The position numbers were made by a program, and so were the translations under genes. From an uncultured virus (IMG/VR IMGVR_UViG_3300015306_000001) (taxonomy: Duplodnaviria > Heunggongvirae > Uroviricota > Caudoviricetes): a stretch of DNA of 64,000 nt. The first letter of the stretch is position 1. Each line of letters begins with the position of its first letter. Below are positions 12,405-56,815 of this stretch, in pieces. A model generated the notes under the pieces. It made no database searches, was not told where the DNA came from, and was given only the letters and a program-made list of their open reading frames with translations. The stretch lies in IMG/VR virus record IMGVR_UViG_3300015306_000001; one strand, written 5' to 3'.

Positions 12405-12651
12405 TGCTATACCACTGCTATACCAAAATACGTCTCAAAAACAAAAGTGGTATAGGCTCAAACCCTTGGAAAATAAGGGTTTTGCTTAACTACTATACCA
12501 TATTCTTCTCTCTTTTATAAAGTATATAAAAAAGAAGAGAGATAGGATATACACATTCAATAAAAAGTTTTCACTTTTGCCTTGATTTCGGTATAGCAAA
12601 CATTTAAGTTGTTGAAATCACTTATGAATCCCTATTCGGAACCCGTATAGC
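12405..12651 (-). repeat. AT-rich iteron element, copy A (candidate origin)
   Basis: Non-coding; CTATACC/GGTATAG at 12407, 12418, 12449, 12493 and 12590; homologous to 35.3 kb and 56.6 kb elements. Confidence 0.8.
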
Positions 12652-13098
12652 TCAATCAGAAATCTCTTCGCCGCGCTCATAGGCGGCTCGGATTTCTTCC
12701 GCTTCCGCTTCGTCTCGGGTCGCTTTCCCGACTTTTTTGCCCGCTTCGTCTTCGACATGGAAGTAGCCTGCCTTGCCCTTCACGACCTTTGCGGAGCGCT
12801 TATCGTGAATATCCTCAGAATTGCCCGCTGGCGCGTTTTCTGACTTTGAGGCTACATCCTTAGCCTTTTCCTCTTCAACGCGCTCCTTGGTGCCTTCCTG
12901 CTGATCTGAAGCGGTATCTACCGCGTCGATCTTCCTGTTCTCGTACAAAAGACGAAGCGTGCGGAGCGAAACGCTGTTTTTATCGAAGGGATCGCCGGCC
13001 TTGTAATCAACACCACTAACCGTCAGCGAGCGGGAAGCCGTAAACTCCCCGTCTGCCTTGTCTCGGAAATCGCCCCGAAAATATCGGCTCATTTGCAT
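12652..13098 (-). CDS. Hypothetical protein downstream of the capsid gene
   Basis: 148 aa charged ORF with AAAGGA RBS. Confidence 0.65.
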   Translation of the reverse strand: MQMSRYFRGDFRDKADGEFTASRSLTVSGVDYKAGDPFDKNSVSLRTLRLLYENRKIDAVDTASDQQEGTKERVEEEKAKDVASKSENAPAGNSEDIHDKRSAKVVKGKAGYFHVEDEAGKKVGKATRDEAEAEEIRAAYERGEEISD

Positions 13099-13123
13099 TG
13101 CATATCCTTTCAGGGCGAGTTAA

Positions 13124-14119
13124 TTAGCCGTTGGTCGGCTTGACGATGTTGGAGAACAGTGCGCCGAGATCGGGGGCGACAACTTCCTGCGTGTAAGCCG
13201 ATTCGGCTTCAATGCGATCCGCGCGGCGGGTATCGATACGCATCTTAGAGATACGAGCGCCACCATTCGCCGTGCCGATGTAGTTCGACCAAACAAAGGT
13301 GTAACCGGCCGAAGGGGTCATCAGACCAGCGGACTGCGGAGCGTGAACCAGAAGAGCGGACTGACCAACGAAATAGTCAGTATCTTCCGCAAGGCCCTCG
13401 GGAGCCGTGTTGATAACCGCAGCGGACACGAGGTATTCGGCAACGCCGAACAGGGCCGCAATAGCCGCGTTGGAAACGTTGGCTGGCGAAGTATTCGTGC
13501 CACCGTATTTGACGCGCTCGATAATCTCGGGGTGATTACGCAGAGCGAAATCAACGTCCATGCCAACAATCATCTTGTTGGGGCGACGGCCCGTCAGAAG
13601 GTGCTGACGGATAATAGCCTTCTGGACATCTTCGATTGGTGTCGAGTTGGCATCCGACCACTGAAGGCGCTGATCGCCCGTAGGAGTCGCGGCAACGCCC
13701 GTGTAATCCTGGCCCCAAACGCCGGGAACCATATAGGTCTTGACGAAGTTATCTTCCTTGTTGAGAAGATACTGACCCGTCAGGAAGTTCGTGGTTTCAG
13801 AGTCAAGCTGGAAAGCACCGGAAGCGTTTGCACGAAGCTGATCGCCAATATCGCGGTGGAGAGCCCAAACATCGGCAAAGTAGGTCTGCCGATCAACGCT
13901 TAGGTCAACGCCCTGCGACTCGGTGCCGTCAGCGCGCTTCTTCATGTTGGAACGGAGCCAATCCTCGCGCTTCCACACCCAATACTGGCCACCCTGCTGG
14001 GCAACCGAAACGCGGGGAAACACGCGATCAGCGATGAATTCTGAGGCATCCTGTGCAAAAGCAACCGAAACGTTTGTTAGCGGCTGGCTGACATACACAT
14101 CATTCTGTGCAATAGGCAT
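13124..14119 (-). CDS. Major capsid protein
   Basis: 331 aa (PLTNVSVAFAQ..FIADRVFPRVSV, TPSAGYTFVW); strong codon bias; follows protease, scaffold and decoration genes. Confidence 0.9.
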   Translation of the reverse strand: MPIAQNDVYVSQPLTNVSVAFAQDASEFIADRVFPRVSVAQQGGQYWVWKREDWLRSNMKKRADGTESQGVDLSVDRQTYFADVWALHRDIGDQLRANASGAFQLDSETTNFLTGQYLLNKEDNFVKTYMVPGVWGQDYTGVAATPTGDQRLQWSDANSTPIEDVQKAIIRQHLLTGRRPNKMIVGMDVDFALRNHPEIIERVKYGGTNTSPANVSNAAIAALFGVAEYLVSAAVINTAPEGLAEDTDYFVGQSALLVHAPQSAGLMTPSAGYTFVWSNYIGTANGGARISKMRIDTRRADRIEAESAYTQEVVAPDLGALFSNIVKPTNG

Positions 14120-14132
14120 TGTTGGTTATCCT

Positions 14133-14486
14133 TTACGCAGTGCGCATCTTGAGAAGAACAGGAATCACCTGCCCGTTAACGCCGGCTTCGAGAGCCGTTC
14201 CTTCCGTGCCGCCAGTGACAGCAAAGCCGTTGGCATTCGAGCCAACGCCAGCGCCCTTGGCAATCGTGCCGCCGCAGCGAACAAGAACGCGGCCATCGAT
14301 GGCAACGGCTCCTGGCTGACCGGCAACCGGCTTGGTGTACTGATGAACGCCGATAACCTCGTCAGTCGAATTAGCGACCTTCATGGTTTCAGGAGCGGTG
14401 CCAAGCGCAACGAACTTGTAGTAGTCGTTGCTCATATCCGCTTCAGCGTTAAGAGAAATTAGTGTGCGGACCTGATACGTAGCCAT
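14133..14486 (-). CDS. Head decoration / capsid cement protein
   Basis: 117 aa Gly/Ala-rich (GRVLVRCGGTIAKG...GTALEAG..GQVIPVLL), immediately upstream of the capsid gene. Confidence 0.75.
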   Translation of the reverse strand: MATYQVRTLISLNAEADMSNDYYKFVALGTAPETMKVANSTDEVIGVHQYTKPVAGQPGAVAIDGRVLVRCGGTIAKGAGVGSNANGFAVTGGTEGTALEAGVNGQVIPVLLKMRTA

Positions 14487-14498
14487 TAATGCTATCCT

Positions 14499-15371
14499 TT
14501 ACTTGTCAGCGCGAGCGGTTTCAATTTCGTCGTACAGGCTCGGATTCTCCGAAACTGCGGTTGCATAAGCCTTCTGGATAGAAACACCGTCGCGCTTGCT
14601 AATCTCTTCGGCCTTCTTGTTCAGCTTGTCTTCGGCGGAGCCCTCTTCGACATTGCCAGTCCCGGACTTGCCAACCGTAGCAAAAGCCTTGGCGAGCGAA
14701 GAGTTAGCGGCCTTTAGAATCGCGTCGAATGCGGTCTTGTCTTCAGCGGAAAGACCAGCGTTCGCAGCCTTCAGAATACGGGCCTTGGCCAGTCGATCGC
14801 CCGGAAGAGCGGCAAGCTCATCATCAGCGCGCTTTGCAAGAACCTGAAGTTCAGCTTCGCGTTCGGCCTTTTCGATGCGCTCGTTGGCCTTCGCAATCTC
14901 AGCGGCCTGAGCCTTCATAACAGCAAAAACGCCATCGCCAACCGCAGACTTCGCAATCACCTGACCGTGAAGCTCAATCGTTTCATCGGCCTTCTTGACG
15001 GCAGCGGCCTTCTTTTCCTGTTCCTCGGTGGAGAGAGCCATGAACTTGCCCTTCTCTTCGTCGGAAAGCTTAGCCATATGAGCCTTGACGGCATCGGAAG
15101 CCTTCGCAAGCTTTTCAGCCTTCGCAAGCTCGGTCTTGGTATCTTCAAGCGACTTGGTAAGAGCTTCAACGCTCTTGGTCAGGTCGGCAACCTGTGCTTC
15201 AGTAGCAGCCATATTGGGATCATCCTTTGTTTCGGCTGTGGAATCGGCGGACGATCCGCCTTCGTTAACTCCGTCCGCAGACTTGAACAGAGCGATACGG
15301 GCGTGCTGGTTCATTCCACGCTTGCAGAATGCCACTTCCGTAATTTTGAGATTGGTAAGATCATTCGGCAT
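14499..15371 (-). CDS. Capsid scaffolding protein
   Basis: Likely start MPNDLTNLKITEVAFCKRGMN (TAATG coupling); Ala/Lys/Glu-rich coiled coil between protease and capsid. Confidence 0.75.
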   Translation of the reverse strand: MPNDLTNLKITEVAFCKRGMNQHARIALFKSADGVNEGGSSADSTAETKDDPNMAATEAQVADLTKSVEALTKSLEDTKTELAKAEKLAKASDAVKAHMAKLSDEEKGKFMALSTEEQEKKAAAVKKADETIELHGQVIAKSAVGDGVFAVMKAQAAEIAKANERIEKAEREAELQVLAKRADDELAALPGDRLAKARILKAANAGLSAEDKTAFDAILKAANSSLAKAFATVGKSGTGNVEEGSAEDKLNKKAEEISKRDGVSIQKAYATAVSENPSLYDEIETARADK

Positions 15372-15808
15372 TAACTTGCCGCCTTTCGATGAGCGGAGCC
15401 ACCAATAGACCACGATTCGTAGTCACCGGACTTCACGCCCTTCCAAACTGTGTCGTTTTTGATATAATGCCCGCCCCACCAGAATTCGCCGTCGATCTCG
15501 ATGGTGTGGGGGATTCCAGCGGCAGTAAGCGCCTTCTTGAGGGCTTCTACCTTTTCCTTGGTGAAGACCATCGTTTCGATGAGGTCGCCAACGCCAAGCT
15601 CAGTGTGATTTACGCTTGCGTCACGCGATTCCTTGACGTATTCGTAGGCAGCTTTTTCGATCTCGTGCGTTTCAACACGATCATCTTCCATGTCGTGAAC
15701 AAGTTCGCCGCCGATCTTCATTACCGAAAACAGGCCGAAGGCGATTCGGTTGTCTTCATCGACCTTAGCGATCTTGGCTTCTAGTTCGAAATGATCACTC
15801 ATAACCAA
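15371..15808 (-). CDS. XkdF-like head maturation protease
   Basis: EIEKAAYEY..SVNH and VWKGVKSGDYESWSIGG motifs. Confidence 0.85.
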   Translation of the reverse strand: MVMSDHFELEAKIAKVDEDNRIAFGLFSVMKIGGELVHDMEDDRVETHEIEKAAYEYVKESRDASVNHTELGVGDLIETMVFTKEKVEALKKALTAAGIPHTIEIDGEFWWGGHYIKNDTVWKGVKSGDYESWSIGGSAHRKAAS

Positions 15809-16019
15809 GGTCTTTCATTCGTTGGCGAGCCGTTCGATGAAGAGCATTGCAAACCTCTTGTAAAATCCAACCGGCTCTTTCGTGCGAGCAATCCGCCAGA
15901 AGGATGATTGTGGATTGCAAATCGGTCGCAAGCTCAGGATTATGTGTGGCGAACGCTTCAAAAGGGGTTATAGTTTCTTCGATTCTTATAAATTCGTGCA
16001 TAATTCTGTTGACTTGCAT
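15795..16019 (-). CDS. Small hypothetical protein
   Basis: Fills the gap between HNH and protease and overlaps the protease start; start codon uncertain. Confidence 0.4.
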   Translation of the reverse strand: MQVNRIMHEFIRIEETITPFEAFATHNPELATDLQSTIILLADCSHERAGWILQEVCNALHRTARQRMKDLGYE

Positions 16020-16037
16020 TTAGAAATATGCTATGAT
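16009..16037 (+). promoter_or_regulatory. Sigma70 promoter of the HNH gene
   Basis: TTGACT-17-TATGAT followed by AAAGGA RBS. Confidence 0.7.
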
Positions 16038-16056
16038 AAATTGAAAGGAAAAATGA

Positions 16057-16665
16057 ATGAAATGTTCAATTGACAATTGCAATCGAAAAATTCATGCAAA
16101 AGGTTTGTGTTCACCGCATTACAATAGGCTTTTGCGCTCTGGTGATGTCGCTGGTATTAGAGCCTTTAGAGGGAAGCCAAAAGAAGAAATAGAAAAAGCG
16201 TATGATTGGAATTCAGAAGACTGTTTGATTTGGCCATACGCTAACTGCCAAGGGTATCCAATTGTTAGGCTTGATGGTAAAAACCAAAGAGTGACAAGAA
16301 TTGTTTGTGAGAGAATTAATGGCCCGCCCAAAGAAGATAAAAGCTATGTGCTACATTCTTGCGGAGGAGGTTCGCTTGGCTGCTACAATCCAAAACATTT
16401 ACGATGGGGAGATCAAAAAGAAAACATGGAAGATTGTATTGAACATGGAAAAACAACTAGAGGAAGTCGGCAGCCAAATTCAAAGATAACAGAAGAAACA
16501 GCTATTGAAGTAAAAAGAAGGTTAAAGAACAAACAAATGATGAAACAAATTGCGGCAGATTTAGATATACCATATTCGATTGTTATTTCGATTCATATCG
16601 GGCGCTCTTGGTCTTGGCTCAGTTTTCCAGAACAATCTTATTCAGAAAAGTGCAACGACAATTAA
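16057..16665 (+). CDS. HNH homing endonuclease (antisense insertion in head operon)
   Basis: CSIDNC..HAKGLCSPHY Zn motif, DCLIWP, VLHSCG..CYNPKHLRWGDQKENMED; AT-rich; overlaps the 3' end of the minor head gene. Confidence 0.9.
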   Translation: MKCSIDNCNRKIHAKGLCSPHYNRLLRSGDVAGIRAFRGKPKEEIEKAYDWNSEDCLIWPYANCQGYPIVRLDGKNQRVTRIVCERINGPPKEDKSYVLHSCGGGSLGCYNPKHLRWGDQKENMEDCIEHGKTTRGSRQPNSKITEETAIEVKRRLKNKQMMKQIAADLDIPYSIVISIHIGRSWSWLSFPEQSYSEKCNDN

Positions 16666-17647
16666 CGCATTCGCTTGCTGGGGCTCCATGGCTACGATCA
16701 CCTGGAGCCTTTAGTTTCGCCCCGGTAAGCGGCGAAACGAAGAGTGCATCAATACCGCGAACACTTTTTCCGTCGAGGCCGCTATGTCCGTGGCTTCTAC
16801 GAACACGTTTATCTTTTGTAGAAATCCAAGTTTTAATGACTGCGTTATCACCAAGACCAGTGTTTTCTAGCTGTTGCCTGAGCGCCTCAGTGCGTCCGTT
16901 GTTCACAGCCTCAGCAGCTTCGGTACGCGCAATAACTTGAGCGCGATACTGGATAAATTTTTCCTTATAGCGCATCACCATCTTGTCAATTTGATCAGCG
17001 CTCAGCGGCTTCTTCTTTGCGTTCGCAATGGTCTTGTCAAAGCGCTTGTCGCGTAAATCACGATTAAGAGCTTCGGAAGAACCTTCCTCAAGCAGTCTAC
17101 GATAATTACGAACTGCCGCTAACTGCCGCTCTGTCAAGCCAAGATTTTCTTTGATCCGTTGAGCGGTTTTTCGTGCGCCAAAGCCTTCGTTCTGCCCCTC
17201 GATAAGAGCTTCCGTAACGACGGCTCGTGTGGATTCGTTGATTTCACGAACCAAGCGGCTCGCTTGTTGATTCACAAGCTCAGCGGCGCGCGGATTGCCA
17301 GGATTGAAGCTGATACCGACAACGGGACCGCCATTTGGGAATGCCTGTTGCACGACGCGCGCTAGATCAGGTGCAATCATATCCGTTTCGAATCGGGCTG
17401 CGGCGATAACCGCGTCAAACACAGTGCCTTGAAACGAAACGGCGAATTGATCTAGATAAACCGGAATGTCCGCTTGGCGCTCTGCGGCGATCAATCGCGC
17501 GATTTCCGCAACGAGATCATCTGAGGCCATTTTCTGTAGGTAGGTGAGGAAGGCGCGGAGAAAAGAATTTTCGATTCTTTTCACGAAGTCTCGGATCGCG
17601 GTAAGGTCATCCTCACGGGCTTTAAAGACAAGAGAGGATGTAAACAC
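16619..17647 (-). CDS. Minor head protein (SPP1 gp7 / Mu gpF family)
   Basis: RAQVIARTE, KTWISTKDKRVRRSH and PGD...ECVNCRC motifs. Confidence 0.9.
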   Translation of the reverse strand: MFTSSLVFKAREDDLTAIRDFVKRIENSFLRAFLTYLQKMASDDLVAEIARLIAAERQADIPVYLDQFAVSFQGTVFDAVIAAARFETDMIAPDLARVVQQAFPNGGPVVGISFNPGNPRAAELVNQQASRLVREINESTRAVVTEALIEGQNEGFGARKTAQRIKENLGLTERQLAAVRNYRRLLEEGSSEALNRDLRDKRFDKTIANAKKKPLSADQIDKMVMRYKEKFIQYRAQVIARTEAAEAVNNGRTEALRQQLENTGLGDNAVIKTWISTKDKRVRRSHGHSGLDGKSVRGIDALFVSPLTGAKLKAPGDRSHGAPASECVNCRCTFLNKIVLEN

Positions 17648-18166
17648 TTAGATGCCGCTCCAATAACCCCATTGCTGATCAGCCCGAGAACACTCGTTAA
17701 CGCCTGAAACGAAGCTTCCACCGACGCCGGCTGTTGAGCTTGTGCCGGTGGAGCCTAGATATGATCTGAGAATTTCCATGATCTCTAGCGGAAAGCGATT
17801 ATTCGACGCTGAGGAGAAATCTCGGAAGTACTCGATATCCGCCGACCCTGCTTTCAGTCGTTTGGTCGAGGAAGCTGTTGTCGCGTTCGCCACAAAGTCT
17901 GCTTCGCCCGAAGCCAGCAATGCTGCGATGAGAATTGAACCATTTACGATCCCTTCAACTAGAACGCGCCTCTCAAACGTATCATAGGCGACTTTCCAGC
18001 GCTGCCTATCTAGAATACGTGTGCTCTCGACTAGGCGACCAGCCTGTTCATCTGGGGTCAGAGCACTCCATGCGGCGTAATATGAAGTAGGAATTAGGTA
18101 AGAAGAGGCTTCATCGATGCTCGCATATGTCGAATAAGTGTTACCTTGAATGATGACTTGCGGCAT
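17648..18166 (-). CDS. Head-tail connector-like protein (DnaT-like family)
   Basis: TYASIDEASSY...KRLKAGSADIEY pattern typical of phage neck adaptors. Confidence 0.65.
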   Translation of the reverse strand: MPQVIIQGNTYSTYASIDEASSYLIPTSYYAAWSALTPDEQAGRLVESTRILDRQRWKVAYDTFERRVLVEGIVNGSILIAALLASGEADFVANATTASSTKRLKAGSADIEYFRDFSSASNNRFPLEIMEILRSYLGSTGTSSTAGVGGSFVSGVNECSRADQQWGYWSGI

Positions 18167-18185
18167 GTGAAACCTCTATTGTTGA

Positions 18186-18214
18186 ATTATACACGATTTA
18201 TTTTCGTTTGTCAA
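18186..18214 (-). promoter_or_regulatory. Consensus sigma70 promoter
   Basis: TTGACA-17-TATAAT, then AGAGG RBS and ATG at 18166. Confidence 0.8.
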
Positions 18215-18229
18215 GTGGGGTTGACAAGT

Positions 18230-19432
18230 TTATGTTGTGGGTTCAGCAGCATAGAGGTGCACTTTAACGCCCGTAGCCGATCCACCGCTAAGATTATATC
18301 CGCTAAGAGCCGTTACAAGAGCATTTACACCAGTAATAACTTGCGTAAGCGTAGCAAGAAGCCCGCCCTGCATTTGCTGAAGAACCGGAAGATTACGCAT
18401 TCTATCCGCATAAACCGTAACAGAAGTAGCGGAAACACTGGTAATAATGACGTTGACCCGGTTTGCGCCAGAGGATTCTTGAACCATGTGAGTAACGATT
18501 GGAACAGTTGCAAATGGTTCTGCGAAGTCCCATTTGGCAGTTCCGTCCGAACCAATCGTCACAATCGCGCGCTTGATACGGGCTTTGTGAGTATGATCCT
18601 CGCGCGCATATCGCGTAGACGTACCCATGTTCTGCACGAGGTCTGTTGCGGGTGGGGATGATGTAGCTGGATCAGGAACCTTGATCGCGGCAACGGCTTG
18701 TGATAGCGTATCAACCTGAGACTTAGCGGCCAAACCTGACACGTCGGGAATTCTGGCAGAAAGAGCGCTTACACTTGAAGCGGTTGCTAGATTTGAAACG
18801 TCGGGAATACGAGCCGAGAGAGCCGAAACAGAAGCGCTTGTTGCTAGGTTGCTGACATCGGGAATCTTGGCATTGATCGCACTCAGGGCGTCTTTCGTTG
18901 CCAAACCCGACACGTCAGGAATCTTGGCCTCAACCGTAGACAAAGCCGTTTTCGTTGCCAAGCCTGAAACATCGGGAATACGGTTACTGAGCGTGCTAAC
19001 CGCATCCTTCGTTGCAAAGCCGCTTACATCGGGAATGCGAGCGGCAACCTGTGAAACATCGCTATGGGTGGCGAGATCAGCCGTACTAGGAATAGATGCC
19101 TGAACTTGAGCGATTGCGTCTTTCGTGGCAAAATTCGATACGTCTGGCATATGGATGGAAGACACCATATCCATAAGCGAATCAAGATCGGCTTGCGTTG
19201 CAACGTTTTTGAGTTGTTCTTGGCTTACAGCTTTTTCAAGAGCGCTTTGCAATGCCGCTAAGGCTTGCTGAGTGGCTGGCAGAGCGTCCGCAGCCATTTG
19301 CATGGCGTTGAGGCGGTCGTTAAGCTCAGCAAGAGCGGCGGGATCATCAGAAAGACCTAGAATTTGCGTTCGAAGAGCTTCGATTTGTGCTTTCAGCGAT
19401 CCAACGGAGGGGCGAAGATTCAGCATCACCAC
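18230..19432 (-). CDS. Fibre-like structural protein with 19-aa tandem repeats
   Basis: About 7-8 repeats of IPDVS(G/N)(L/F)ATK..(L/V)S....; YAREDHTH motif; C-terminal beta domain. Confidence 0.75.
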   Translation of the reverse strand: MVMLNLRPSVGSLKAQIEALRTQILGLSDDPAALAELNDRLNAMQMAADALPATQQALAALQSALEKAVSQEQLKNVATQADLDSLMDMVSSIHMPDVSNFATKDAIAQVQASIPSTADLATHSDVSQVAARIPDVSGFATKDAVSTLSNRIPDVSGLATKTALSTVEAKIPDVSGLATKDALSAINAKIPDVSNLATSASVSALSARIPDVSNLATASSVSALSARIPDVSGLAAKSQVDTLSQAVAAIKVPDPATSSPPATDLVQNMGTSTRYAREDHTHKARIKRAIVTIGSDGTAKWDFAEPFATVPIVTHMVQESSGANRVNVIITSVSATSVTVYADRMRNLPVLQQMQGGLLATLTQVITGVNALVTALSGYNLSGGSATGVKVHLYAAEPTT

Positions 19433-19752
19433 ACCGTCAGAACGTAAGAGGAGTTGTCGGCAGCGGCTTTGATTTCGTATCCACCTTCGGGACGAAAATC
19501 AGGTGAAAAGCTATCGCCGTATCCGGGTAAGCGAGCGCCAGTTACATTTGAACCGCTGATTCGGATTGACAACTCGCTCTGTGACGTGTTTTGAACCAAG
19601 AAGCCTTGGCGCTCGTTGCTAGGATCAAGGAGGAGCGCCCAATCCATGTTAGCGAATTCATCGCTCATTTCAAGATTTTCGTCATTAGGGACCGAAACTT
19701 CTCCGGTCCCTGCTTTAGCTGTTTCGAATTCGATTTTATTCCAACTCGGCAT
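19426..19752 (-). CDS. Small structural protein
   Basis: 108 aa, predicted beta-rich, coupled to the repeat protein. Confidence 0.6.
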   Translation of the reverse strand: MPSWNKIEFETAKAGTGEVSVPNDENLEMSDEFANMDWALLLDPSNERQGFLVQNTSQSELSIRISGSNVTGARLPGYGDSFSPDFRPEGGYEIKAAADNSSYVLTVW

Positions 19753-19794
19753 ATTTTACCCCTTTAGACATTTGCGAGGAAAAGGGTCGGGATT

Positions 19795-29512: not shown

Positions 29513-29969
29513 GTAGCTCTCTTGCCGCTTTCATATAGGCTTCGTGTGCCTCTTCGGCGGTATCGTAATGGCCAAGGTTGATACAAACCTTGTTTACATT
29601 GATTCGGGCTTTATATCGGCCATCGCGCTTCATATACGCAACACCCTTAAAACCAGAAACATTGTCTTTATGAGCCCCACGATTCCGATTATTTTCGCCG
29701 TGAGAAGCCTCTCTAAGATTAATCAAACGGTTATCAGCGCGATCTCCATTGATATGATCTATTTGATACTTAGGATGATTTCCCGTCGCCAGATACCAAG
29801 CAAGCCGATGACCGAGCCAATATTTCTTTTCAAAGTGAACAACTACATATCCTAAAGTGTTCACTCTGCCCGCTCTATTACCACCTAACTGACGAGCGTA
29901 ATCTTTAATCCAAAACAACAAACCCGTGTCTTGATCATAACGAATATAATCTTCAATTTTCATTGGCAT
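29490..29969 (-). CDS. HNH endonuclease with AP2-like DNA-binding domain
   Basis: HRLAW..IDHINGDRADNRLINLRE, SGFKGV, LGHYDTAEEA. Real start likely MPMKIEDY after a TTGACT-17-TATAGT promoter. Confidence 0.9.
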   Translation of the reverse strand: MPMKIEDYIRYDQDTGLLFWIKDYARQLGGNRAGRVNTLGYVVVHFEKKYWLGHRLAWYLATGNHPKYQIDHINGDRADNRLINLREASHGENNRNRGAHKDNVSGFKGVAYMKRDGRYKARINVNKVCINLGHYDTAEEAHEAYMKAARELHGQFAKA

Positions 29970-33951: not shown

Positions 33952-33956
33952 ATATT

Positions 33957-34844: not shown

Positions 34845-35255
34845 CTAATCAAAGAAACGCCCTGTAAGGCGCTCTAATTCGTTTTTTAGTTCATCGGCGC
34901 GAAAGTCACTGAAATAATCGAAGCCATCCCGCCAATTTGCGACTTCGTGGCCATGCACAAACGCTGTGTGCCACGCTTTGTCCCGCCAAATACCGAAAGC
35001 GAATAGCGAAAAACCACCAGAACGCCAGAGCGTCGAGTGCCAAGCGATTTGCGCAGGGCGTATACCGGGTTTCTTGACCCATAACATGCCTTCTTCGGGC
35101 TCCGCGATCTTTAGTTCGACAGGAACAATAACATCCCCCACTAGAACCAAAAGGTCGGCCGCCCCCGTATCAGAACCCCTTCCTGGCTCTACGGCCGAAA
35201 TCCATCCTTTGTAAGAGGCACGAAAGGCCCGTTTATAATCAGTTTCCGATGGCAC
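34845..35255 (-). CDS. VRR-NUC / PD-(D/E)xK nuclease (resolvase-like)
   Basis: GTG start after AGGAGA; GAADLL..VELK..IRPAQIAWH motif. Confidence 0.75.
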   Translation of the reverse strand: MPSETDYKRAFRASYKGWISAVEPGRGSDTGAADLLVLVGDVIVPVELKIAEPEEGMLWVKKPGIRPAQIAWHSTLWRSGGFSLFAFGIWRDKAWHTAFVHGHEVANWRDGFDYFSDFRADELKNELERLTGRFFD

Positions 35256-35284
35256 AAAACGTCTCCTATTCAGTCTTGAATAAC

Positions 35285-35518
35285 GCAAACCCTTATTTTC
35301 TAGGGCTTTCAAAAATTAGTATTCCAAAATACAGCTAAAAGTGAAAACTTTTTAAAGCGTATATATATTACTACTATTCTTCTTCTTCTTACTTATAGAA
35401 AAGAGATAGAATATGGAATACTAAAAAGAACACATTAATAAAAACAATCACTTACGCTATTCCGTTGCTATTCCGGTTTAAGAAAAACATCCCAAACCGG
35501 AATACACTTTGAATACGG
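35285..35518 (+). repeat. AT-rich iteron element, copy B (candidate origin next to the primase-helicase stop)
   Basis: (G/C)TATTCC/GGAATAC at 35319, 35415, 35457, 35468 and 35499; 18-nt AAAAGTGAAAACTTTTTA shared with copy A. Confidence 0.75.
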
Positions 35519-37771
35519 CTAAAAAACCGCTTGCGCTAGTTCCTCGGGAACCCTTAGCGCGGCGCGGATCGTATCTCCTCTTTTCTCCTCTGGCATTGCC
35601 ATAAGCTGCGAATACAACAGCGACGAAACCATAACGTTCTGCGTTTTTCGTCCGATGCTCATTCGGTTAGGCCATGACTTCATTCCAGCTTCAACCATTG
35701 CCTTTCTGATCTCATGGTCCTTTTCACGATCACGCACATGAACCACCGTCCGCAGCCATTGGTTCAATGCTGTTTGTGTGAACGACAACGCCAGCCCTTC
35801 AGTTTCGATAGCCTTCGCTAACCCAAAAGCCTCTTGGCACGTCTCGGAGCGTGATTCCTCGATCACGCGCTTTTTGGTTTTCGTGTCAGGCGCACGTTCT
35901 CCAGACTTGACGTAATCGCCATATTGCTCAGCCCAATGTTTGATGTGCGAAAGCCCGCCAGCCTTCAACCATGAATGGAAAGCATTGAAGTTGGCATCGC
36001 CCCAAATCTTCTCAGTGACCTCAGGCACAAGCCAACGCCGGTCGGCGTCTTCAATTCGAACAGCGACAGGACTATTTGAACAAGCAACGAAATGCGCATG
36101 ATTACGAAGCGTATAAGGAATCTTATACTTCTCGTTGCAGCGCAACACTTGGTCCGTGATAAGCTCTTTCAGACGATTTGCAGCCTTCCACGTCCCTGCT
36201 TGATAGATTTCGTTGCAAACAACCAACGTTTTTTCTGCAATCCAGTCGTTGAACTGAGAATTCACAAGGCCATCTTCGCCAACCGAAGAATAGTTCTTCT
36301 CGCCAACCAGCGGCCTCAATACGCTTTCACATAACGTTGTCTTTCCGGTTCCTGTTTGAACACTTGCTAAAAGCATAGCATACTTCATTCGGACATCAGG
36401 CCGCGCAATAATCGTCGCAACCCAACGCTCAACATACTTTCGGCTTTGCTCCTCTGGAAACAAATGCTCCAAGAACTTATGCCATTGCGTCAAATCTCCA
36501 GGCTCGGCCTTGATTTTCGACCCGGTATAAAGATTTAGCGCAGCATCGCCATCTTCATTGACCATCCGAGAATGCTCGTCTCGCGAAAACGACTTGACGT
36601 CAGGCCGATAGGTGATCTTGTCAATATTGATGCGTTGAGCCTTTAGAACAAGCGAAGCTGTATCCTTGACATCGGACCAACGACGCATGACGGCATTGAA
36701 CTTCGCTTCATCGTATCGTGTGCGTGGATCGTGCCTCCAGACAAAGAGCCCTGTCTGATTGACATAAAGCCATTGCCCTTTAAAACCGCTTCTGAGGATG
36801 GCAACTCTCTTCTTTGAGTCTGGTGCTTCTCCAGGGGGAATCACAAGCTCTGTGGCCCATGTTGCGGGAGTCAGAAGGTCATGAAAACTTGGTCCGGTAT
36901 AATAACCTTTGCCATCTCGCTTCTCAAACAGAGAATCAGGCATGGGGTCTGCCAAATCCCAAGACACGGGCCAACGATCATCGAATTGGAGCACGCGGCA
37001 AGGCAAATCCACCAACGAAGAAATGTCCTTGACGGCCGCATAGCCCACTTCGTCGTGATCTGGAACGATGATGACTTGTTTGATGCCATTCCGCTTCAAA
37101 GAGCGCCAGTCGGCTTTCTTTGCCGCAAAAGCGCCAGCCGTGAAGCCGATATGAACCGCATAGTCAAGTTCAGCCGCCCAAGGATGCGCAGAGTAAGCTG
37201 CACGGTCCTTAGCCGTCTTCTGCGATATCATTCGCTGCATGGCCCGCGCTGCTTTGCCGCCTTCCGAGATAATAGCGACATCGCTTGTTCCGATGTTCTC
37301 CATGCCCCAGAGCGGAATATGCGGAAGATCAGGCATCAGGCAACGCCACTTGCCGTCTTCATAGATCGTGTATGGGCGATAGGCCCGCTCTCCTTTGACC
37401 TCGGAGCGAACCTGATACATGATCAGCGTCCCGTCCGCATCCCGGTATTCGAAAACATCGTCAGGAGCCGCTTCTAGAACGGCTTTCGGCTTTGGATCAT
37501 CATCGCGCGCTTTGCGCCACACGGGCCATTCTGCGTCTAGAATCTCATTCTTAATCCGCTCCGCTTCCCGCTCAGAAGGCGCATATTCGTGTGGGTCAGC
37601 TTTGACTTCGCCCGTTCGCTTATCGAATTCAATTGTCGCAATTTCACGAAAGTATTTCCCAACACGTTCGCGAACATGAGCTTCCCGAACGTTGACGAAC
37701 TCAGCATCAATACGAGAAATATAAGCTTTTACAGAAGGAAGATCAGCAAGATATTCAATTTTAATTCCCAT
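35519..37771 (-). CDS. Primase-helicase (Toprim-like plus SF3/DUF5906 helicase)
   Basis: ISEGGKAA..VPDHDEVG..WDLAD Toprim motifs; QTGTGKTT Walker A, VCNE, CSN and DADRRW helicase motifs. Confidence 0.9.
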   Translation of the reverse strand: MGIKIEYLADLPSVKAYISRIDAEFVNVREAHVRERVGKYFREIATIEFDKRTGEVKADPHEYAPSEREAERIKNEILDAEWPVWRKARDDDPKPKAVLEAAPDDVFEYRDADGTLIMYQVRSEVKGERAYRPYTIYEDGKWRCLMPDLPHIPLWGMENIGTSDVAIISEGGKAARAMQRMISQKTAKDRAAYSAHPWAAELDYAVHIGFTAGAFAAKKADWRSLKRNGIKQVIIVPDHDEVGYAAVKDISSLVDLPCRVLQFDDRWPVSWDLADPMPDSLFEKRDGKGYYTGPSFHDLLTPATWATELVIPPGEAPDSKKRVAILRSGFKGQWLYVNQTGLFVWRHDPRTRYDEAKFNAVMRRWSDVKDTASLVLKAQRINIDKITYRPDVKSFSRDEHSRMVNEDGDAALNLYTGSKIKAEPGDLTQWHKFLEHLFPEEQSRKYVERWVATIIARPDVRMKYAMLLASVQTGTGKTTLCESVLRPLVGEKNYSSVGEDGLVNSQFNDWIAEKTLVVCNEIYQAGTWKAANRLKELITDQVLRCNEKYKIPYTLRNHAHFVACSNSPVAVRIEDADRRWLVPEVTEKIWGDANFNAFHSWLKAGGLSHIKHWAEQYGDYVKSGERAPDTKTKKRVIEESRSETCQEAFGLAKAIETEGLALSFTQTALNQWLRTVVHVRDREKDHEIRKAMVEAGMKSWPNRMSIGRKTQNVMVSSLLYSQLMAMPEEKRGDTIRAALRVPEELAQAVF

Positions 37772-47841: not shown

Positions 47842-50675
47842 TTAATCTTCCCCAAAACCCGAACCTGTTTCACCAAGAGCACTGGCGCTTCTGGCGTCAG
47901 CGTACCCTTTACAGCTATTAGCACCTTTCCTGCTTCTAAGTCAAGAACTTTCGGCGCAAGTTCGCGATATTCCTTCATGCCAATCTTCGCATAGATCACG
48001 CCTTCGTCAAGCTGCAATCGAATCTCGCAGAAATCGGCGGGCTCTGGCTTCAATCGATCTTGGCCGCGCTCTACGCGATCGTTCTGGCGCTCGATCTCGT
48101 TTTCTGAGCGCTGCTTGATCACAATAGGAACGCCGACGAAAACGCAATCTTCTCGCCATTCGCCAGTCGGATCGAACTCCGCAAACGTCATCGGCTTTGA
48201 AACAATGCCTTTCGATGCGAGATCAAGCTTTGTAATCGCTTCACGAATCGGATAAAGCGAATCGATCTTTGTCTCAGCCTTCGCCAACATCTTAGCCGCC
48301 CTGTCTGGCAGCGCTTCTCCCCGCGCTCTAGCAGACAAAATTGATTGCTGCATTTTGGGGCCAAGGCCGATGCAGTTCGACAACGGCCCAACCAGAACCT
48401 TCTTGCCATCGCGATAACCGACGCGCCATTGATCCGTTGATTGCTCAGCATCAATCGGAACGTATGAAACGCCTTCCTGAGCCAATTCGCGAAGAAGCGC
48501 AATTTGTTTTTCGGAATCATCCTGATGCGTCAAGGCGGCAGCGGCGAATTCTAGGGGATAATGCGCCTTCAGCCAACACGACCAATAAGAAACCGTCGCA
48601 TAAGCAATCGAATGCGAAAGATTGAAGCCATAACCACCAAAGCCTAGAATGTCCTGCCAAAGACGATTTGCCGTTTCTGGCTCGAAACCGTTCGCAATCA
48701 AGCCCTCCTTGAACGGATCGCCATAAGCCCGCATGGCTTCCGGTCCCATGGACTTGCCAATTGCCTTACGCAACGCAGCAACCGAATTCCAATCAAGCCC
48801 CGCCAACTCCCGCGCAATCAGCATAACGCTTTCTTGCATGATAAGAAGGCCAAGATACGGCTTCAGATACGGCTCTAGGCGTGGGTGGACATACGTGACT
48901 TCCTCGCGCCCGTTCTTGCGCTTTACCCACGATCCCGCCGCTCCGCTATTCAATGGCCCAGGACGTGCCAGGGCTGAAAGCGTAGAGATATCATAGAGCG
49001 AAGAAACGTGGACTTCTTTGGTCAAATTCTGCAACGCTCGCCCATCGAACTGAAACAAAGAACAGAAATGCCCTTTGTTCAGAACGTCGAAAGCCGCAGG
49101 ATCGTCTAGCGAAATATGCGACAAGTGATCTACGGGAAGCCCCGCAAAGCGCAAGGCATCCTGAAAGATCGAAAGCGAAGTTAGCCCAAGCGCGTCAAGC
49201 TTAGGCGCGCCGCGCTTCTCAGCGGTTGGCCCGTCGATCTGCGCCGTTTGCGTCCGTGCATCCATCGCGACATAAAGCGAAAGCGGCTCATTCGTCAGAA
49301 TAAGGCCCGCCGCGTGCGTCGTAGAATGCGAAGGATTGCCGCCAAGCCTTCCTGCAACCGCCATCTCAGGATGGCGCTCAAGGAATGCCTTGCCGGTTGC
49401 AGTTTGATCGAATGCGTCTTGCAACGCTTTATCTGAGCGCGAATCGCCTGCTGCGTACTTCGTCACGGAGGCAATAACAGGCGTCGTCTCGTATTTCGCA
49501 ACGCCCATCGCCTTGGCTGTTTCGTTCATCGAATTCTTGGATTGCCACATTGAAACGGCACCGATTTTCGCAACACGATCCGCACCATACTTATTTTTCA
49601 GGTACTCGATAACCTGATCACGCTCAGTCGCAGAAAAGTCCGTATCGATATCGGGATAGTCAGGGCGGTTCGGATCGATAAAGCGCCAGAACAAAAGACC
49701 GTGCGGGATCGGATCGACTTCGGTAATGCGAAGGAGATAACAAACGAGCGAGCCCGCCGAAGAACCACGCCCAGGACCAACAAGCATTTCCTTTCGCGCC
49801 CAGCGAAGGAGGTCGCTGAGAAGGTGAAAATAGTTGTCGAATTGTTTGTCTGCGATGACCTTTAGCTCTGTATCGAGACGTTCGGCATAGACGGGGTTGC
49901 CCAGGTCAACGCCAAGTTCTTTCGCGCCTTCTATGCAAAGCTCGCGAAGAGACTGCGACGGTTTTGGGTCAATAAGCGAGGCTTTCGGAAGAGTAGCGTC
50001 ACAAGCATCGAAAACGATCATGCGATTGCGCAGCGCAATCCATACAAGATCGCCTAGCCCCTTCGCTTCAATAGCCGCTGACCACTCCTCATCGCTCAAA
50101 ATATGCTGCGGATACGTCTGCAAAGAAGCCCCGCGTCCGCAAGCCGTCTCATAGTCGTATCTCTGATCTTCGGTCGCGTAGCGGTTTTCCTGATGCGCAA
50201 TGAAACGAAAGCCTCGCTTTTTGGCTTCGTTAATCAAGCCTTTTGGCGTGGCAACGCTGAGCCCGATAAACAAGTTAGGGTCAGCCGGGTCTAGCTCATC
50301 AAGCCGCGCGCGATAGCCCGCGATCTTATAGACACCTTCAACATTGGCGATGTCGCTGTATTGAAGCTGCGGAACGTAACGAAACTGCGAAGTCGCCTTG
50401 CCGATCAGAAGATTGATCGGCTGAATCGATTCCTTGGCCAAGAATGTGAAGCCATCAACGATAGGCTTCTTAGCGTTCAGCGATGGCGTAACGGCAATGG
50501 TCGCGCCGAAGATAGGCTTAAGCTCCGCCTCAGTCGCGGCCTTGTTCCATTCGTCATAGCCAAAAGCAGTTGTGTCGGCTAGGGGCGCATAGCCCCAGCC
50601 GATTTCTTTGAGTCGTTGAACGGCATCTTTCGGGGAGCCGTAAGCGTGTCGAAAGCTGAAAGAAGTTTTGATCAC
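47838..50675 (-). CDS. dnaE: DNA polymerase III alpha subunit (family C)
   Basis: GPGRGSSAGSLVCYLLRITEVDP, PDIDTDF, HAAG, RPGP and YGFNLSHS..YA motifs. Confidence 0.95.
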   Translation of the reverse strand: MIKTSFSFRHAYGSPKDAVQRLKEIGWGYAPLADTTAFGYDEWNKAATEAELKPIFGATIAVTPSLNAKKPIVDGFTFLAKESIQPINLLIGKATSQFRYVPQLQYSDIANVEGVYKIAGYRARLDELDPADPNLFIGLSVATPKGLINEAKKRGFRFIAHQENRYATEDQRYDYETACGRGASLQTYPQHILSDEEWSAAIEAKGLGDLVWIALRNRMIVFDACDATLPKASLIDPKPSQSLRELCIEGAKELGVDLGNPVYAERLDTELKVIADKQFDNYFHLLSDLLRWARKEMLVGPGRGSSAGSLVCYLLRITEVDPIPHGLLFWRFIDPNRPDYPDIDTDFSATERDQVIEYLKNKYGADRVAKIGAVSMWQSKNSMNETAKAMGVAKYETTPVIASVTKYAAGDSRSDKALQDAFDQTATGKAFLERHPEMAVAGRLGGNPSHSTTHAAGLILTNEPLSLYVAMDARTQTAQIDGPTAEKRGAPKLDALGLTSLSIFQDALRFAGLPVDHLSHISLDDPAAFDVLNKGHFCSLFQFDGRALQNLTKEVHVSSLYDISTLSALARPGPLNSGAAGSWVKRKNGREEVTYVHPRLEPYLKPYLGLLIMQESVMLIARELAGLDWNSVAALRKAIGKSMGPEAMRAYGDPFKEGLIANGFEPETANRLWQDILGFGGYGFNLSHSIAYATVSYWSCWLKAHYPLEFAAAALTHQDDSEKQIALLRELAQEGVSYVPIDAEQSTDQWRVGYRDGKKVLVGPLSNCIGLGPKMQQSILSARARGEALPDRAAKMLAKAETKIDSLYPIREAITKLDLASKGIVSKPMTFAEFDPTGEWREDCVFVGVPIVIKQRSENEIERQNDRVERGQDRLKPEPADFCEIRLQLDEGVIYAKIGMKEYRELAPKVLDLEAGKVLIAVKGTLTPEAPVLLVKQVRVLGKIK

Positions 50676-51296: not shown

Positions 51297-51832
51297 ATTG
51301 AACCCTCCTTAACCATATATATAAGGCATCGTTCCGTTGCCTCCACATCCGACTTCGCGCCGTGGGCTCCATCGAAGCCCTCATTATAGAAGGTTTCATG
51401 TAGCAATGTCAAGTTCGGACGGAAGCCAAATCGCCACTCATTCTCTGAAACTGTATCGATCAGCCGCTTTTCCGAATAGTCCCAATCAATGCCCGCGCGC
51501 CTAAAATCAAAACTGAGCATCATCAAATCGAAGAGGAGATTATGGCCAGCGTAAGCGTCACAATCCTGCATAAAGGCATGAATCTTCTCAGCTTCGCTGA
51601 TAAAAGTTGGCTTATCCAGAAGAAATTCTTCCGTCAAGCCTGTAACCTTCATAGCGCCAGCATCCATTGGAACGCCAATTTTGAACCAGGAATGATAATC
51701 GCCAAGCGCTTCGCCGGTTTCGGTATCGATACGTTTGGCGTATAACTCTACGGTCCAAGGTTGCTTATTAAGCGCTCGCTGAGTTGAGTGCCAAAGCGCA
51801 CTTGTTTCTGTATCAAAGACAATCGTCTTCAC
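51293..51832 (-). CDS. DnaQ-like DEDDh 3'-5' exonuclease
   Basis: VFDTET, GHNLLFD, IDT and AHGAKSDV motifs. Confidence 0.9.
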   Translation of the reverse strand: MKTIVFDTETSALWHSTQRALNKQPWTVELYAKRIDTETGEALGDYHSWFKIGVPMDAGAMKVTGLTEEFLLDKPTFISEAEKIHAFMQDCDAYAGHNLLFDLMMLSFDFRRAGIDWDYSEKRLIDTVSENEWRFGFRPNLTLLHETFYNEGFDGAHGAKSDVEATERCLIYMVKEGSI

Positions 51833-52343
51833 GGGCAATCCTTTCTGCACGTATTTGCGCTTGTGTTTCCGCTCTCCGCTTAATGAATTTGGCTCGTTCT
51901 TCCTCGTTCATAGATTGCCAAAATCCTTTAACTGCTTTGGTGCCTTTTGCAACAAGATCAGCCATAAGTTCTTTGGCTTTAGGATGACGTTCAAGAAAAT
52001 CTTGCCGATTGTCTCTTTTCGTCCCTAGTTCAAGATGGTTTGGATTACAGCATTTAGTGTTATCGCATTTATGCCGAACAATCAATTCATCGGGAATTGA
52101 ACCTACGTAAACTTCATAAGATTTTCGATGAAGCAAAAATTCTTCGTCTTCAAACTGTCCTTCTTTATACTTTCCTTCTCGACAACCCTTTGCTTCCCAA
52201 CAATCGTCAACATTTCCTTTGTTAATCTTTGTATCTAAATAAGCCTCGATTGTTTTCGGGCGACGTTTTTCCCAAGCCTTACCCATTTGAACACTTCGCG
52301 GGTTATTAGGATCAACTGACTTTCGCTTTCGAATATTTCTCAC
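51813..52343 (-). CDS. HNH endonuclease
   Basis: CWE..HRKSY..VRHKCDNTKCCNPNHLELGT..N motif; AT-rich. Confidence 0.9.
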   Translation of the reverse strand: MRNIRKRKSVDPNNPRSVQMGKAWEKRRPKTIEAYLDTKINKGNVDDCWEAKGCREGKYKEGQFEDEEFLLHRKSYEVYVGSIPDELIVRHKCDNTKCCNPNHLELGTKRDNRQDFLERHPKAKELMADLVAKGTKAVKGFWQSMNEEERAKFIKRRAETQAQIRAERIAREDDCL

Positions 52344-54500: not shown

Positions 54501-55376
54501 TGGTATTCTCTCCTAGAAGTTCGATGTCGATACCGAATTCATTGATAGAGCCATAACCCTCAACAAATTCACTGCCATACCCTTCAATCACACCGCGCGC
54601 ATAAAGGGAAGCCAAATGCTCAGCGTGATCGCGTGTATCATATGCAGGGAATATAAGATCACGAAACTCTTGCATAAATGATTCGGTGAACTTCGTTTCA
54701 TCTAGCGAAACGCGGATCGTTTGAGTGACTTCTACGTTAAAGGTTTGCATCTTTATCCTCCACAACCCCCTCTTCAATATACATTTGATCGTTAAAATTA
54801 TCAATCAACGTATCAATGATATTCTCAAGACTGTCATATTCCGTGACGTTGAATTCAAGATCAAGCCAACGCTCTTCGACTGCATCATGAGCGGTAAACT
54901 GGCGACGATAACTTATTTTCATAGCTCTTCATCCTCATCAAAATAGCCGGTCTCACGCAGCGATTCATAATAACCCTGCCAGTTATCGACGCCGCCGCTT
55001 TCAAGAGCAATACGCCACTTCGCGTCGTCCAGAAGCTCTTCATATTCTTTGCGGCTGATCGTTACGGTTTCTTCTTCCATCTTTTCTCTCCATCAAAAAG
55101 AAACCCGGCACAACTCGCGCCATGCCGGGGTCGGGGTTACTTCGTGTCGGTTGTCACGGTTGATCGAAAGAACGCGCCTACAAATCCGAGAGCCGCACCT
55201 AGCTGCCACATGGCATAGCCTGCCGTATCAAAGCCCGCACGGGCGAAGAAGCCCATCACGGTATCCTCAAAGAACAGGCCGACCACCCACCCCACGAAAG
55301 CGCCCGCAAGAACGCCGATAAGAGGGAAGAGGATAATCAGGGCGAAGACGCCCAAGAGTGCGAGAATTGTTTTCAT
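54487..55376 (-). other. Small hypothetical genes including a 79-aa membrane protein (55137-55376)
   Basis: Packed ORFs; terminator-like hairpin near 55100-55130. Confidence 0.55.
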
Positions 55377-55386
55377 GTGTCAAGCC

Positions 55387-56157
55387 TCAAAAAGGTACGT
55401 CATCGGAGCGAACGTCGTCATCTTCGCGTGTATCGGCCTTAGCCGTTCCCGCCTGAATAGAACGCTGAAGAGCCTTTGCGGATTCCAAAACCTCAGCCGC
55501 ATTCGGAAGGTCCATCGTCAGCGGGCCGTCTTCGATCTTCCAGTTCTTCCACTTCTTGCCATTGCCGGAATCATCGAAAGAAGTCAGAAGATACGTCTTA
55601 TACATCAGCGGGGCGGGGCGACCATTCGGCATACGAATGGAAGTCGCCTTCGTCATAAACTGGCGCATGACCTTCAACGACGACTTCTTGAACGCCGCAA
55701 AGCTCCAGCGGTTATCGGCACTCAGATTGAGGCCATAAAGCTGGACATAGGAGATGATTTCGTTTCCTTCCTTCGTCAGCGTCTGATTCTTGTCGTTCCG
55801 CTCAAGACCAAGCTCAGCGATACGGTCATAGTCATACCGGGCGACGATGCCACCGCCCTGATTCTCAGGCTTCCATTCAATTTGGACCTTTTCGCGCATC
55901 ACCGGAAGGAAGTGAACCGGACCCTGGAAGACCTCTCCAAGAGAGACATCCGCGACCATACCGGACTTAGCGCCTTCAATGTACTTGGCATGGCCTTCCT
56001 CGATCTGAGGAGAAAGCGCACCAAGGACAGCGAGGCGAGGAATGATAAAGTCAGAGCTATCGACGTGGCCAAAACCCGCGTCTACATCATCAAACGCCCC
56101 TGCGAGCGCCACAGCGTTAACGGCTTCTTCCTGAACTGCAACTGCATTCTTAGCCAT
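55387..56157 (-). CDS. Putative single-stranded DNA-binding protein
   Basis: IIPRL..LSPQ family pattern; acidic C-terminus DDDVRSDDVPF resembling bacterial SSB tail; own promoter near 56231. Confidence 0.7.
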   Translation of the reverse strand: MAKNAVAVQEEAVNAVALAGAFDDVDAGFGHVDSSDFIIPRLAVLGALSPQIEEGHAKYIEGAKSGMVADVSLGEVFQGPVHFLPVMREKVQIEWKPENQGGGIVARYDYDRIAELGLERNDKNQTLTKEGNEIISYVQLYGLNLSADNRWSFAAFKKSSLKVMRQFMTKATSIRMPNGRPAPLMYKTYLLTSFDDSGNGKKWKNWKIEDGPLTMDLPNAAEVLESAKALQRSIQAGTAKADTREDDDVRSDDVPF

Positions 56158-56243
56158 TCTAATTTCCTATTTTCTTGTTTCGGCGCACCAAGGCGCAAGA
56201 CATGTGTAGCCGATTGCGGCGGGAAAGTCAAGTGAAATCGGGA

Positions 56244-56501
56244 CTAGCGCCGAAAAATCCTGTGCTGACCCGCCACATATCCAACTTGCTGAATTTCGCG
56301 CAAATCGCCAATCTCCACAAGCCTATCAACGCAGGCAAGTAGCTGCCACGAATCGCCAAGGCTACCGCTGATGATCTCTTCCATGCGCGCCACGCCAGCC
56401 GTCTTGCAGAGCGAGAAGGCGCGATCCCTGATCTTAAGGAATTTTCGCTGCCCTTCATCAGTAAATACAGAGGGGCGCTCTTTTTCATATTCATATCCCA
56501 T
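56244..56501 (-). CDS. Hypothetical protein
   Basis: AAGGAG RBS, MGYEYEKERPSVFTDEGQ... Confidence 0.65.
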   Translation of the reverse strand: MGYEYEKERPSVFTDEGQRKFLKIRDRAFSLCKTAGVARMEEIISGSLGDSWQLLACVDRLVEIGDLREIQQVGYVAGQHRIFRR

Positions 56502-56569
56502 TTCAATCTCCTTCTGGCGGAGGCGCAAAACGCGCCTCCGCTTTATCTAGCACGACCAAACGGAAAAGG

Positions 56570-56815
56570 CAATACCAAAAGCGGATAGGAATGTACGCGC
56601 AATTTCAATAACTTAACCACTAGCTATACCAAATTCACGCCAAAACTGAAAACTTTTCTTTTCATTGATTACCTATCCCTCCTTCTCTTTCTCCTTACTT
56701 TTAGAAAGAGAGAAGAATATGGTATAGGAAAGAGGGAAAAGCCTTATGCCACAAGGGTTTGAGCCTATACCAAATCTGTTCAGGGCCTCAAAACCGTATA
56801 GAATTTGTATATCAC
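56570..56815 (+). repeat. AT-rich iteron element, copy C (candidate origin at the strand switch)
   Basis: 23-nt and 21-nt blocks identical to copy A with identical spacing. Confidence 0.8.

Follow-up and report, generated by a model that had tools for sequence, protein, structure and literature searches.

Dispersed homologous dyads of SaPI/PICI type in an uncultured siphovirus and its relatives as candidate multiple replication origins

The closest described counterpart of the elements analysed here is the replication origin of Staphylococcus aureus pathogenicity islands (SaPIs) and other phage-inducible chromosomal islands (PICIs), where, according to the accessible text of PMC9371898, Rep proteins load themselves at an ori directly downstream of their gene, on iterons that run in opposite directions around a central AT-rich region and are read by the C-terminal winged helix of Rep. 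We analysed a stretch of 64,000 nt from an uncultured Caudoviricetes virus (IMG/VR record IMGVR_UViG_3300015306_000001), hereafter the window, which carries three elements of this anatomy: A (12405..12651, minus strand), B (35285..35518, plus strand) and C (56570..56815, plus strand), the second of them directly 3′ of the stop codon of a primase-helicase gene (35519..37771, minus strand). The elements are homologous and alike in anatomy, the neighbouring protein has the fold of a self-loading initiator, dyads of this kind are linked to the primase gene across the family, and multiple copies recur in relatives and change together within each genome. The reading we favour, at about an even chance, is that A, B and C are three copies of a SaPI/PICI-type origin, each able to initiate replication.

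With the pri-rep-ori units of these islands (SaPI1 Rep1, SaPI5 PriRep5), as far as the accessible text describes them, the window phage shares a self-loading SF3-type fold (Z 17.0), the box anatomy, the position directly downstream of the gene (B only) and a box word specific to each genetic element. It differs in having three homologous dyads, up to 25 kb from the gene, where each island has one ori; in being lytic and probably ~66-69 kb long, with its own DnaE-type polymerase and a TOPRIM primase domain; and in a core that passes from a pyrimidine tract to a purine tract. Nor is it a PICI satellite, as the window holds a full siphovirus with capsid, tail and polymerase, and no integrase match was found among the 99 open reading frames (ORFs) scanned. 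Phage P4 has a TOPRIM primase, a helicase and a C-terminal DNA-binding domain in its single alpha protein, and its crr is an obligatory iteron array unlike ori. P4 therefore resembles the window phage in its one-protein domain set and in having more than one iteron site per genome, whereas the extra sites of the window phage are full dyads, absent from most relatives. The preliminary description of this DNA took P4 ori plus crr as its model; the SaPI/PICI ori is the closer one, since every copy is a complete dyad that includes an AT-rich core of its own. Baculovirus homologous regions, dispersed genome-specific palindromic repeats that evolve together and are possible origins, belong to eukaryotic viruses, consist of short-palindrome arrays and have an enhancer role, and are compared here by description only. 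Phage T4 is a lytic phage with several origins, some at transcription strand switches, but these origins (at least five in the accessible text of PMC3016281) share no motif and use R-loops, while the window copies are homologous and of initiator type. The origin unit is of a known kind; its dispersed, co-evolving two- or three-copy arrangement is the new part, and we found no description of homologous multi-copy phage origins in the full-text literature, a search that covered few subscription papers and had supplements outside its scope.

Anatomy of the elements and fold of the adjacent primase-helicase

Each element has an AT-rich core of ~100 bp between inverted TATWCC boxes, with more boxes outside, and the core consists of a pyrimidine tract followed by a purine tract, on either strand. 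The boxes point in opposite directions on the two sides of the central AT-rich region, which matches the definition of a SaPI/PICI-type origin. Element A has the opposite orientation to B and C and takes up the 257 nt that separate 12652-13098 from the head-closure gene (12017-12394) in the head-neck operon; its inner dyad (12493-12596, centre ~12516) has CTATACC boxes facing across a 90-nt AT-rich pyrimidine-to-purine core, and its outer boxes are at 12407, 12418 and 12449-12455, with variants near 12633 and 12644-12650. In B, the inner dyad (35319-35421, centre ~35396) has an 89-nt core and the variant word TATTCC in place of the TATACC of A and C, and the outer boxes are at 35457, 35468 and 35499-35505; these boxes are kept in a locus (L198) whose primase is 97% identical to that of the window. 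Element C occupies the strand switch at which the replication module gives way to the SNF2-helicase arm, with an inner dyad at 56624-56727 (90-nt core, centre ~56702) and outer boxes at 56765 and 56795-56800. The placement of each element had been recognized in the preliminary description, and its details held up on inspection: box gaps are 90 and 37 nt in A and C and 89 and 35 nt in B, the 23-nt and 21-nt matches shared by A and C are exact and lie where they had been placed, and the 18-mer common to A and B is present only at 35337 (plus strand) and 12578 (minus strand).

That the three elements are homologous, as had been proposed, was also borne out by alignment statistics. Local alignment scores were 142 for A-C, 70 for A-B and 63 for B-C, while the maxima of dinucleotide shuffles were 30-35 (0 of 300 shuffles reached the observed scores) and 12 other AT-rich stretches of the window scored 16-25. 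In a blastn comparison of the window with itself, A and C were 76% identical over 181 nt (E 9e-27), and the other pairs were weaker (A-B, E 4e-6; B-C, E 1.6e-4). TATWCS boxes number 17 in the 848 nt of the elements as against 121 in the whole window, and the least stable 60-mer of the window is in B, the second least stable in A. Inverted matches within the elements are only 8-11 nt long. Element A is covered in related strains from sequencing runs X2, X3 and X5, which belong to two further studies; in run X1, an apparent joint at 12515-20000 with substitutions at 12479 and 12484 proved to be element C aligning onto A and not a rearrangement.

The primase-helicase has 750 residues and a Pfam DUF5906 match, and comprises a TOPRIM primase (~residues 82-300), an SF3/DUF5906 helicase and a C-terminal domain. 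Its structural model (predicted local distance difference test, pLDDT, 87.8) superimposed on T7 primase over residues 82-300 (Z 11.2, root-mean-square deviation (rmsd) 3.6, 158 aligned), on the NrS-1 helicase (Z 25.2, rmsd 5.5, 370 aligned) and, over residues 252-748, on SaPI5 PriRep (Z 17.0, rmsd 5.0, 382 aligned), and a structure atlas returned Toprim-like matches for it; by Pfam and fold comparison, a cognate helicase of SF3/D5-like type is present in the window phage. The last 110 residues are modelled in a helix-strand-helix-helix-strand-strand order that is consistent with a winged helix, and the atlas matches of this domain are mostly unnamed. We infer that this protein is the cognate initiator of the elements.

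Linkage, copy number and concerted change among relatives

Relatives were found by alignments, single-protein locus searches having found none, and comprise 29 contigs of ~54 kb or more drawn from 158 viral loci, with five metagenome contigs set aside. The same dyad detector was used on all 29 and combined core asymmetry with inverted arms, followed by an nhmmer search of each genome with its own element. Downstream of the primase stop, the top-ranked dyad was no further than 500 nt away in 11 of the 29 (0.22 expected), 3 kb in 17 (1.33 expected) and 5.5 kb in 18 (2.43 expected). Among the remainder, dyads were found 18 kb (G018) and 12 kb (G022) from the primase and, in G019, just upstream of it. 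The box word differs from phage to phage and is common to all copies within one genome. A sub-clade of 70-76 kb (G004-G007) has primase and SNF2 genes adjacent, the arrangement expected from inversion of the replication block, and a very AT-rich stretch of repeated TTTAATAAAA-like words (at 47753, 32676, 10991 and 40770 in G004 to G007, respectively).

For 9 of 19 loci in bacterial genomes, the distance from the primase stop to the top dyad was no more than 250 nt. The four of these that were looked at more closely belong to Methylobacterium, Roseospirillum, Brevundimonas and Neoroseomonas (L397/L398, L399/L400, L401/L402 and L403) and are small islands whose integrase, primase and dyad follow the PICI order; terminase or capsid genes are present in three of them. 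These islands are PICI-like satellites that use the same primase family as the window phage. In three bacterial islands, one dyad copy each was found.

The search for copies in related phages that the preliminary description proposed identified three genomes with three copies (G001, G003, G008) and three with two (G002, G009, G010). There are never more than three per genome, and the one to three copies are at conserved positions. The second copy invariably takes the position of C, upstream of the SNF2 gene, and this position is occupied in all six; the G009-type pair, 15-16 kb apart, was also seen on two further contigs. The third copy is in the head-neck operon in the window and G001, where it is syntenic with A, and before a baseplate wedge gene of myovirus type in G003 and G008. 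Since the structural genes of G003 and G008 gave no tblastn match to those of the window, the two third-copy placements look independent on genomic comparison. In a quick tree, all multi-copy genomes fell in one supported 13-row clade, alongside six genomes without extra copies, and the three-copy and two-copy labels clustered no more among themselves than in shuffles. Searches of 20 single elements against their own genomes gave three weak matches only (E 0.08-0.35). In G003 and G008 no 60-mers are less stable than those of the three copies, and in G001 the copies rank 1, 2 and 4.

The near-even spacing noted in the preliminary description was found again in the three-copy genomes and is limited to those four: the arcs are 0.32/0.375/0.30 in G001, 0.37/0.33/0.30 in G003, 0.28/0.34/0.38 in G008 and, for a circle of 69 kb, 0.33/0.31/0.36 in the window phage. 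The chance of a third copy being so central in the long arc is 0.046, 0.078, 0.101 and 0.160 for the four genomes, which amount to two independent events rather than four.

In each of the seven genomes with more than one copy, these are mostly closer to each other than to the syntenic copies of the sister genome. Within-genome scores were 192-332 in G003 and 55-162 in G008, with syntenic pairs at 37-47; for the window (63-142) and G001 (48-113) the syntenic pairs scored 39-61, a slight overlap. In G003, A and C are 97% identical over 181 nt, and the arms of the G008 copies look like mosaics of one another. Such likeness within a genome is the pattern that one trans-acting reader combined with gene conversion would be expected to produce. 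Positions and box spacing are kept between phages with 54% (window and G001) or ~40% primase identity.

Cultured phages carry dyads of a similar layout, though in two copies and with uneven spacing. Phage PB1 has two homologous dyads (L351:12690-12990 and L352:25780-26150) in its two most AT-rich stretches, the first following the helicase gene and the second within the head operon, and the PB1 query matched 581 places in 299 records; Spe5P4 (L353/L354) and TH32 (L405) have two dyads each, with the qualification that Wifcevirus place counts include both strands of one dyad and that the TH32 places are two loci. Across Pbunavirus, Myosmarvirus and Wifcevirus, one dyad is between the helicase and terminase genes and one in the head operon, the copies share genome-specific inverted boxes, and most records leave them unannotated. 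Jedunavirus JD001 (41 of 48.8 kb covered) has two near-identical 270-bp dyads (L407:25098-25370 and 38632-38907, E 1e-71; also L408), and its query matched 157 places in 71 records; a third blast place in one Jedunavirus record was a copy split at the record start. Copies in PB1, Spe5P4 and JD001 are direct, and no third copy was found in PB1 or Spe5P4. The PB1 parallel is an analogy, because its VapE-like helicase gp77 has no BLASTP similarity to the window primase and cannot be aligned to it; the JD001 primase matches the window protein only over the helicase part (25%). Phage RDJL1 has one unannotated dyad at 32.2-32.5 kb (L120:650-1050), ~2 kb after the primase, with tandem CTATAC boxes, which is a candidate origin with a box word nearly the same as that of the window. 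Its repeats at 6.3, 19.9 and 41.2 kb are promoter-like and not dyads, and neither a dyad nor a dispersed copy was found in Cronobacter phage Ss1. For Pbunavirus, the accessible text of PMC12390725 (2025) proposes a SaPI-like helicase as the candidate initiator and, from GC skew, locates origins within replication genes, which are not the sites of the two dyads found here, and that of PMC6521218 predicts a pac site in an AT-rich region that could be an origin; the two dyad copies are unmentioned in the accessible text of either.

Candidate origins and competing readings

Under the reading we favour, the C-terminal domain of the primase-helicase would bind the inverted TATWCC boxes, two hexamers would load themselves on either side of the 90-bp AT-rich core and melt it, the TOPRIM domain would prime, and the phage DnaE-type polymerase would extend. 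B, next to the initiator gene, would be the ancestral origin; C and A would have arisen later as copies, with selection and gene conversion between copies keeping them in step with the initiator, and early replication might begin at any one of three sites that lie about one-third of the genome from each other. The parts of this proposal differ in strength. The preliminary description had called the elements loading sites for the primase-helicase, and comparison (architecture, family linkage and copies changing together within a genome) speaks for the binding half of that claim: the protein probably binds the boxes of all three. Melting of the cores would presumably follow, and for independent firing of A and C, which are 21-23 kb from the gene, the arguments are evenly poised.

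Several observations weigh against three active origins. One copy or none was found in 23 of the 29 relatives, so extra copies are not needed family-wide; the two-copy genomes are uneven, with 40-46 kb free of any copy, and a profile search found no third copy in G002, G009 or G010. G004-G007 and G014 have no clear primase-linked dyad, and the linkage counts come from a detector built after seven of the 29 genomes had been seen, applied to rows that are related and, for G020 and G027, near-identical. Element C is not among the eight least stable 60-mers of the window. The winged helix is assigned from topology and the full-length alignment, and a separate model of the C-terminal domain was poor (pLDDT 55). 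The GC-skew check suggested in the preliminary description gave no origin-like signature: cumulative skew of the window, a measure confounded by gene class and strand, has its maximum at B (terminus-like) and its minimum at C, with no turn at A, and skew at four-fold sites follows gene class, with no switches at or between elements in seven genomes.

The absence of a skew signature of three origins would also fit a system in which only B fires and A and C bind the primase-helicase as accessory sites, either as crr-like looping partners or as initiator sinks that titrate or time initiation. A and C form the closest pair in each of the four three-copy genomes, inverted relative to each other and with B as the outlier, and in the window the B boxes read TATTCC as opposed to TATACC; P4, moreover, has crr besides ori (both named in the accessible text of PMC9942202). 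The closeness of A and C points either to a functional separation of B from this pair or to an exchange in which the primase gene moved together with B; the latter would also explain the divergence of B. Unlike bare iteron arrays, A and C are each a complete dyad, with the same 90-nt core and with spacing conserved, and since a single copy suffices in most relatives, a second site would hardly be obligatory in the way of crr. We regard purely accessory roles for A and C as unlikely, though they come next in probability to the favoured reading.

It is improbable that the dyads are packaging or genome-end signals (pac, cos-like or resolvase targets) read by terminase or by a neighbouring nuclease. 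The gene next to B (34845..35276, minus strand) is nuclease/resolvase-like, possibly of VRR-NUC type judging by its motif, with no Pfam or PDB match; a similar small gene is also next after the B-type dyad in several relatives, and the G004-G007 candidate stays near the nuclease gene. The B-type copy sits between primase and terminase genes, the G022 dyad is close to TerL despite its distance from the primase, and terminase genes are next to the dyad in three of the four islands; yet the same layout occurs beside unrelated terminases (phrog_309/38 in the window, phrog_83, phrog_2), one island has no terminase match among the ORFs scanned, and A and C are far from terminase genes. In Jedunavirus, one copy lies shortly before terS and the start of several records falls at or within it, although an assembly can also break in a near-identical repeat and so give a record such a start. 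The pac site predicted for a Pbunavirus in an AT-rich region (accessible text of PMC6521218) is offset by another Pbunavirus without significant terminus peaks (accessible text of PMC12390725).

Control of transcription, by promoters, operators or helicase-opened sites that couple late transcription to replication, also has little probability. Ribosome-binding sites of structural or helicase genes follow directly on the extra copies, the dyad stretch is annotated as a promoter in some Jedunavirus and Pbunavirus records, and CTATAC is similar to an alphaproteobacterial -10 element; but the boxes of relatives are quite different words, unlike -10 elements, and the dispersed promoter-like repeats of the same genomes differ in anatomy. 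Promoter scans of A and C were at chance level, including a sigma-70-like promoter (10/12) at 56824..56852 (plus strand), just outside the C dyad and facing the rightward genes, which was one found as against 1.2 expected in shuffles.

A role of the folded structure, as a cruciform or single-strand hairpin serving recombination or inversion, or as a structured RNA, is hardly probable. A and B fold with z of about -5 to -7 and the G003 and G008 copies with -11 to -14, but the folding of C is at the level of shuffles (z about -1), the alignment of the three copies has an unfavourable covariation term (+1.56), and there is no Rfam match at the elements, the only matches in the window being 3 tRNAs. 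Changes specific to copy B of G003 are mirrored on both arms, which template switching at an origin could also bring about. The inversion of A relative to C would suit an inversion substrate, yet the window/G001 and G003/G008 pairs are collinear, with no inversion isomers, and the PB1, Spe5P4 and JD001 copies are direct. Finally, that A and C are neutral or selfish copies without a phage role, like miniature inverted-repeat transposable elements (MITEs) or duplicated origin debris, is very improbable despite the long terminal inverted repeats of G003 and G008 and a copy number varying from 1 to 3, as positions and box spacing are conserved across the primase identities given above, the many copies at variable sites typical of MITEs were not seen, no transposase match was found among the 99 ORFs scanned, and length changes of A in related strains sum to zero among those listed.

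Genome context and implications

The window holds most of a lytic siphovirus genome, with tape measure, major tail, neck, major head, portal and terminase genes, a DnaE-type polymerase gene (47838-50675) and an SNF2 helicase gene (59161-60801); tRNA genes for Trp, Met and Pro (33878-34113) are in the stretch that separates element B from the terminase small subunit. The circle probably measures 66-69 kb, because a protein identical to the window primase (P0076, 750/750) is encoded on a 69,260-nt contig and the nearest relatives sit on contigs of 66-67.6 kb; some 5 kb of the genome may be unseen, and the third arc could reach ~25 kb given that 69,260-nt contig. No close cultured relative was found: no cultured phage aligns over 80% of the window primase, element A had no match in 50,697 phage records, and the gapped A/C pattern had none in viral contigs. 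Related primases in islands of several Alphaproteobacteria are a host lead only.

Five HNH endonuclease genes (16057-16665, 29490-30107, 51813-52343, 56876-57373 and 60798-61364) are present; one of them adjoins element C, and the one at 16-16.8 kb is uncovered in the related strains of runs X2, X3 and X5. Just outside the inner dyad of A is an integration host factor (IHF)-like site (12603..12617, minus strand) with a counterpart in C (56603-56615), a weak lead, as one-mismatch matches to the IHF consensus number 5 in the elements and 103 in the whole window, barely above background. GC-rich low-complexity repeats occupy both window ends (1-1000 and 62400-63830), with a tail-fibre match at the left and a Pro/Ala-rich ORF at the right, and contigs of run X1 terminate in these regions. 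Tandem repeats of 57 nt (19 residues) were seen at 18717-19150, within the head-region ORF 18230-19432, and a TTGACA-type promoter-like sequence is present in two copies (31516-31576 and 31992-32051) in a small rightward gene cluster.

We put forward only tentatively the wider proposal that the use of two or three homologous origins, each firing independently, is widespread among lytic phages of 48-70 kb whose helicases load themselves, with the copies matched to the initiator by gene conversion and, in this clade, trisecting the genome. If true, this would amount to a small-scale version of the multi-origin replicons of archaea that has been missed even in PB1 and in isolates of Wifcevirus and Jedunavirus, and homologous copies co-evolving around a phage genome would be a design unlike a single iteron site adjacent to its initiator gene. 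The question is testable now, since cultured phages carry the two-copy form. The elements would supply candidate origins for phage groups whose origins are unmapped, and the family offers many natural pairs of box and C-terminal domain from which a recognition code could be read.

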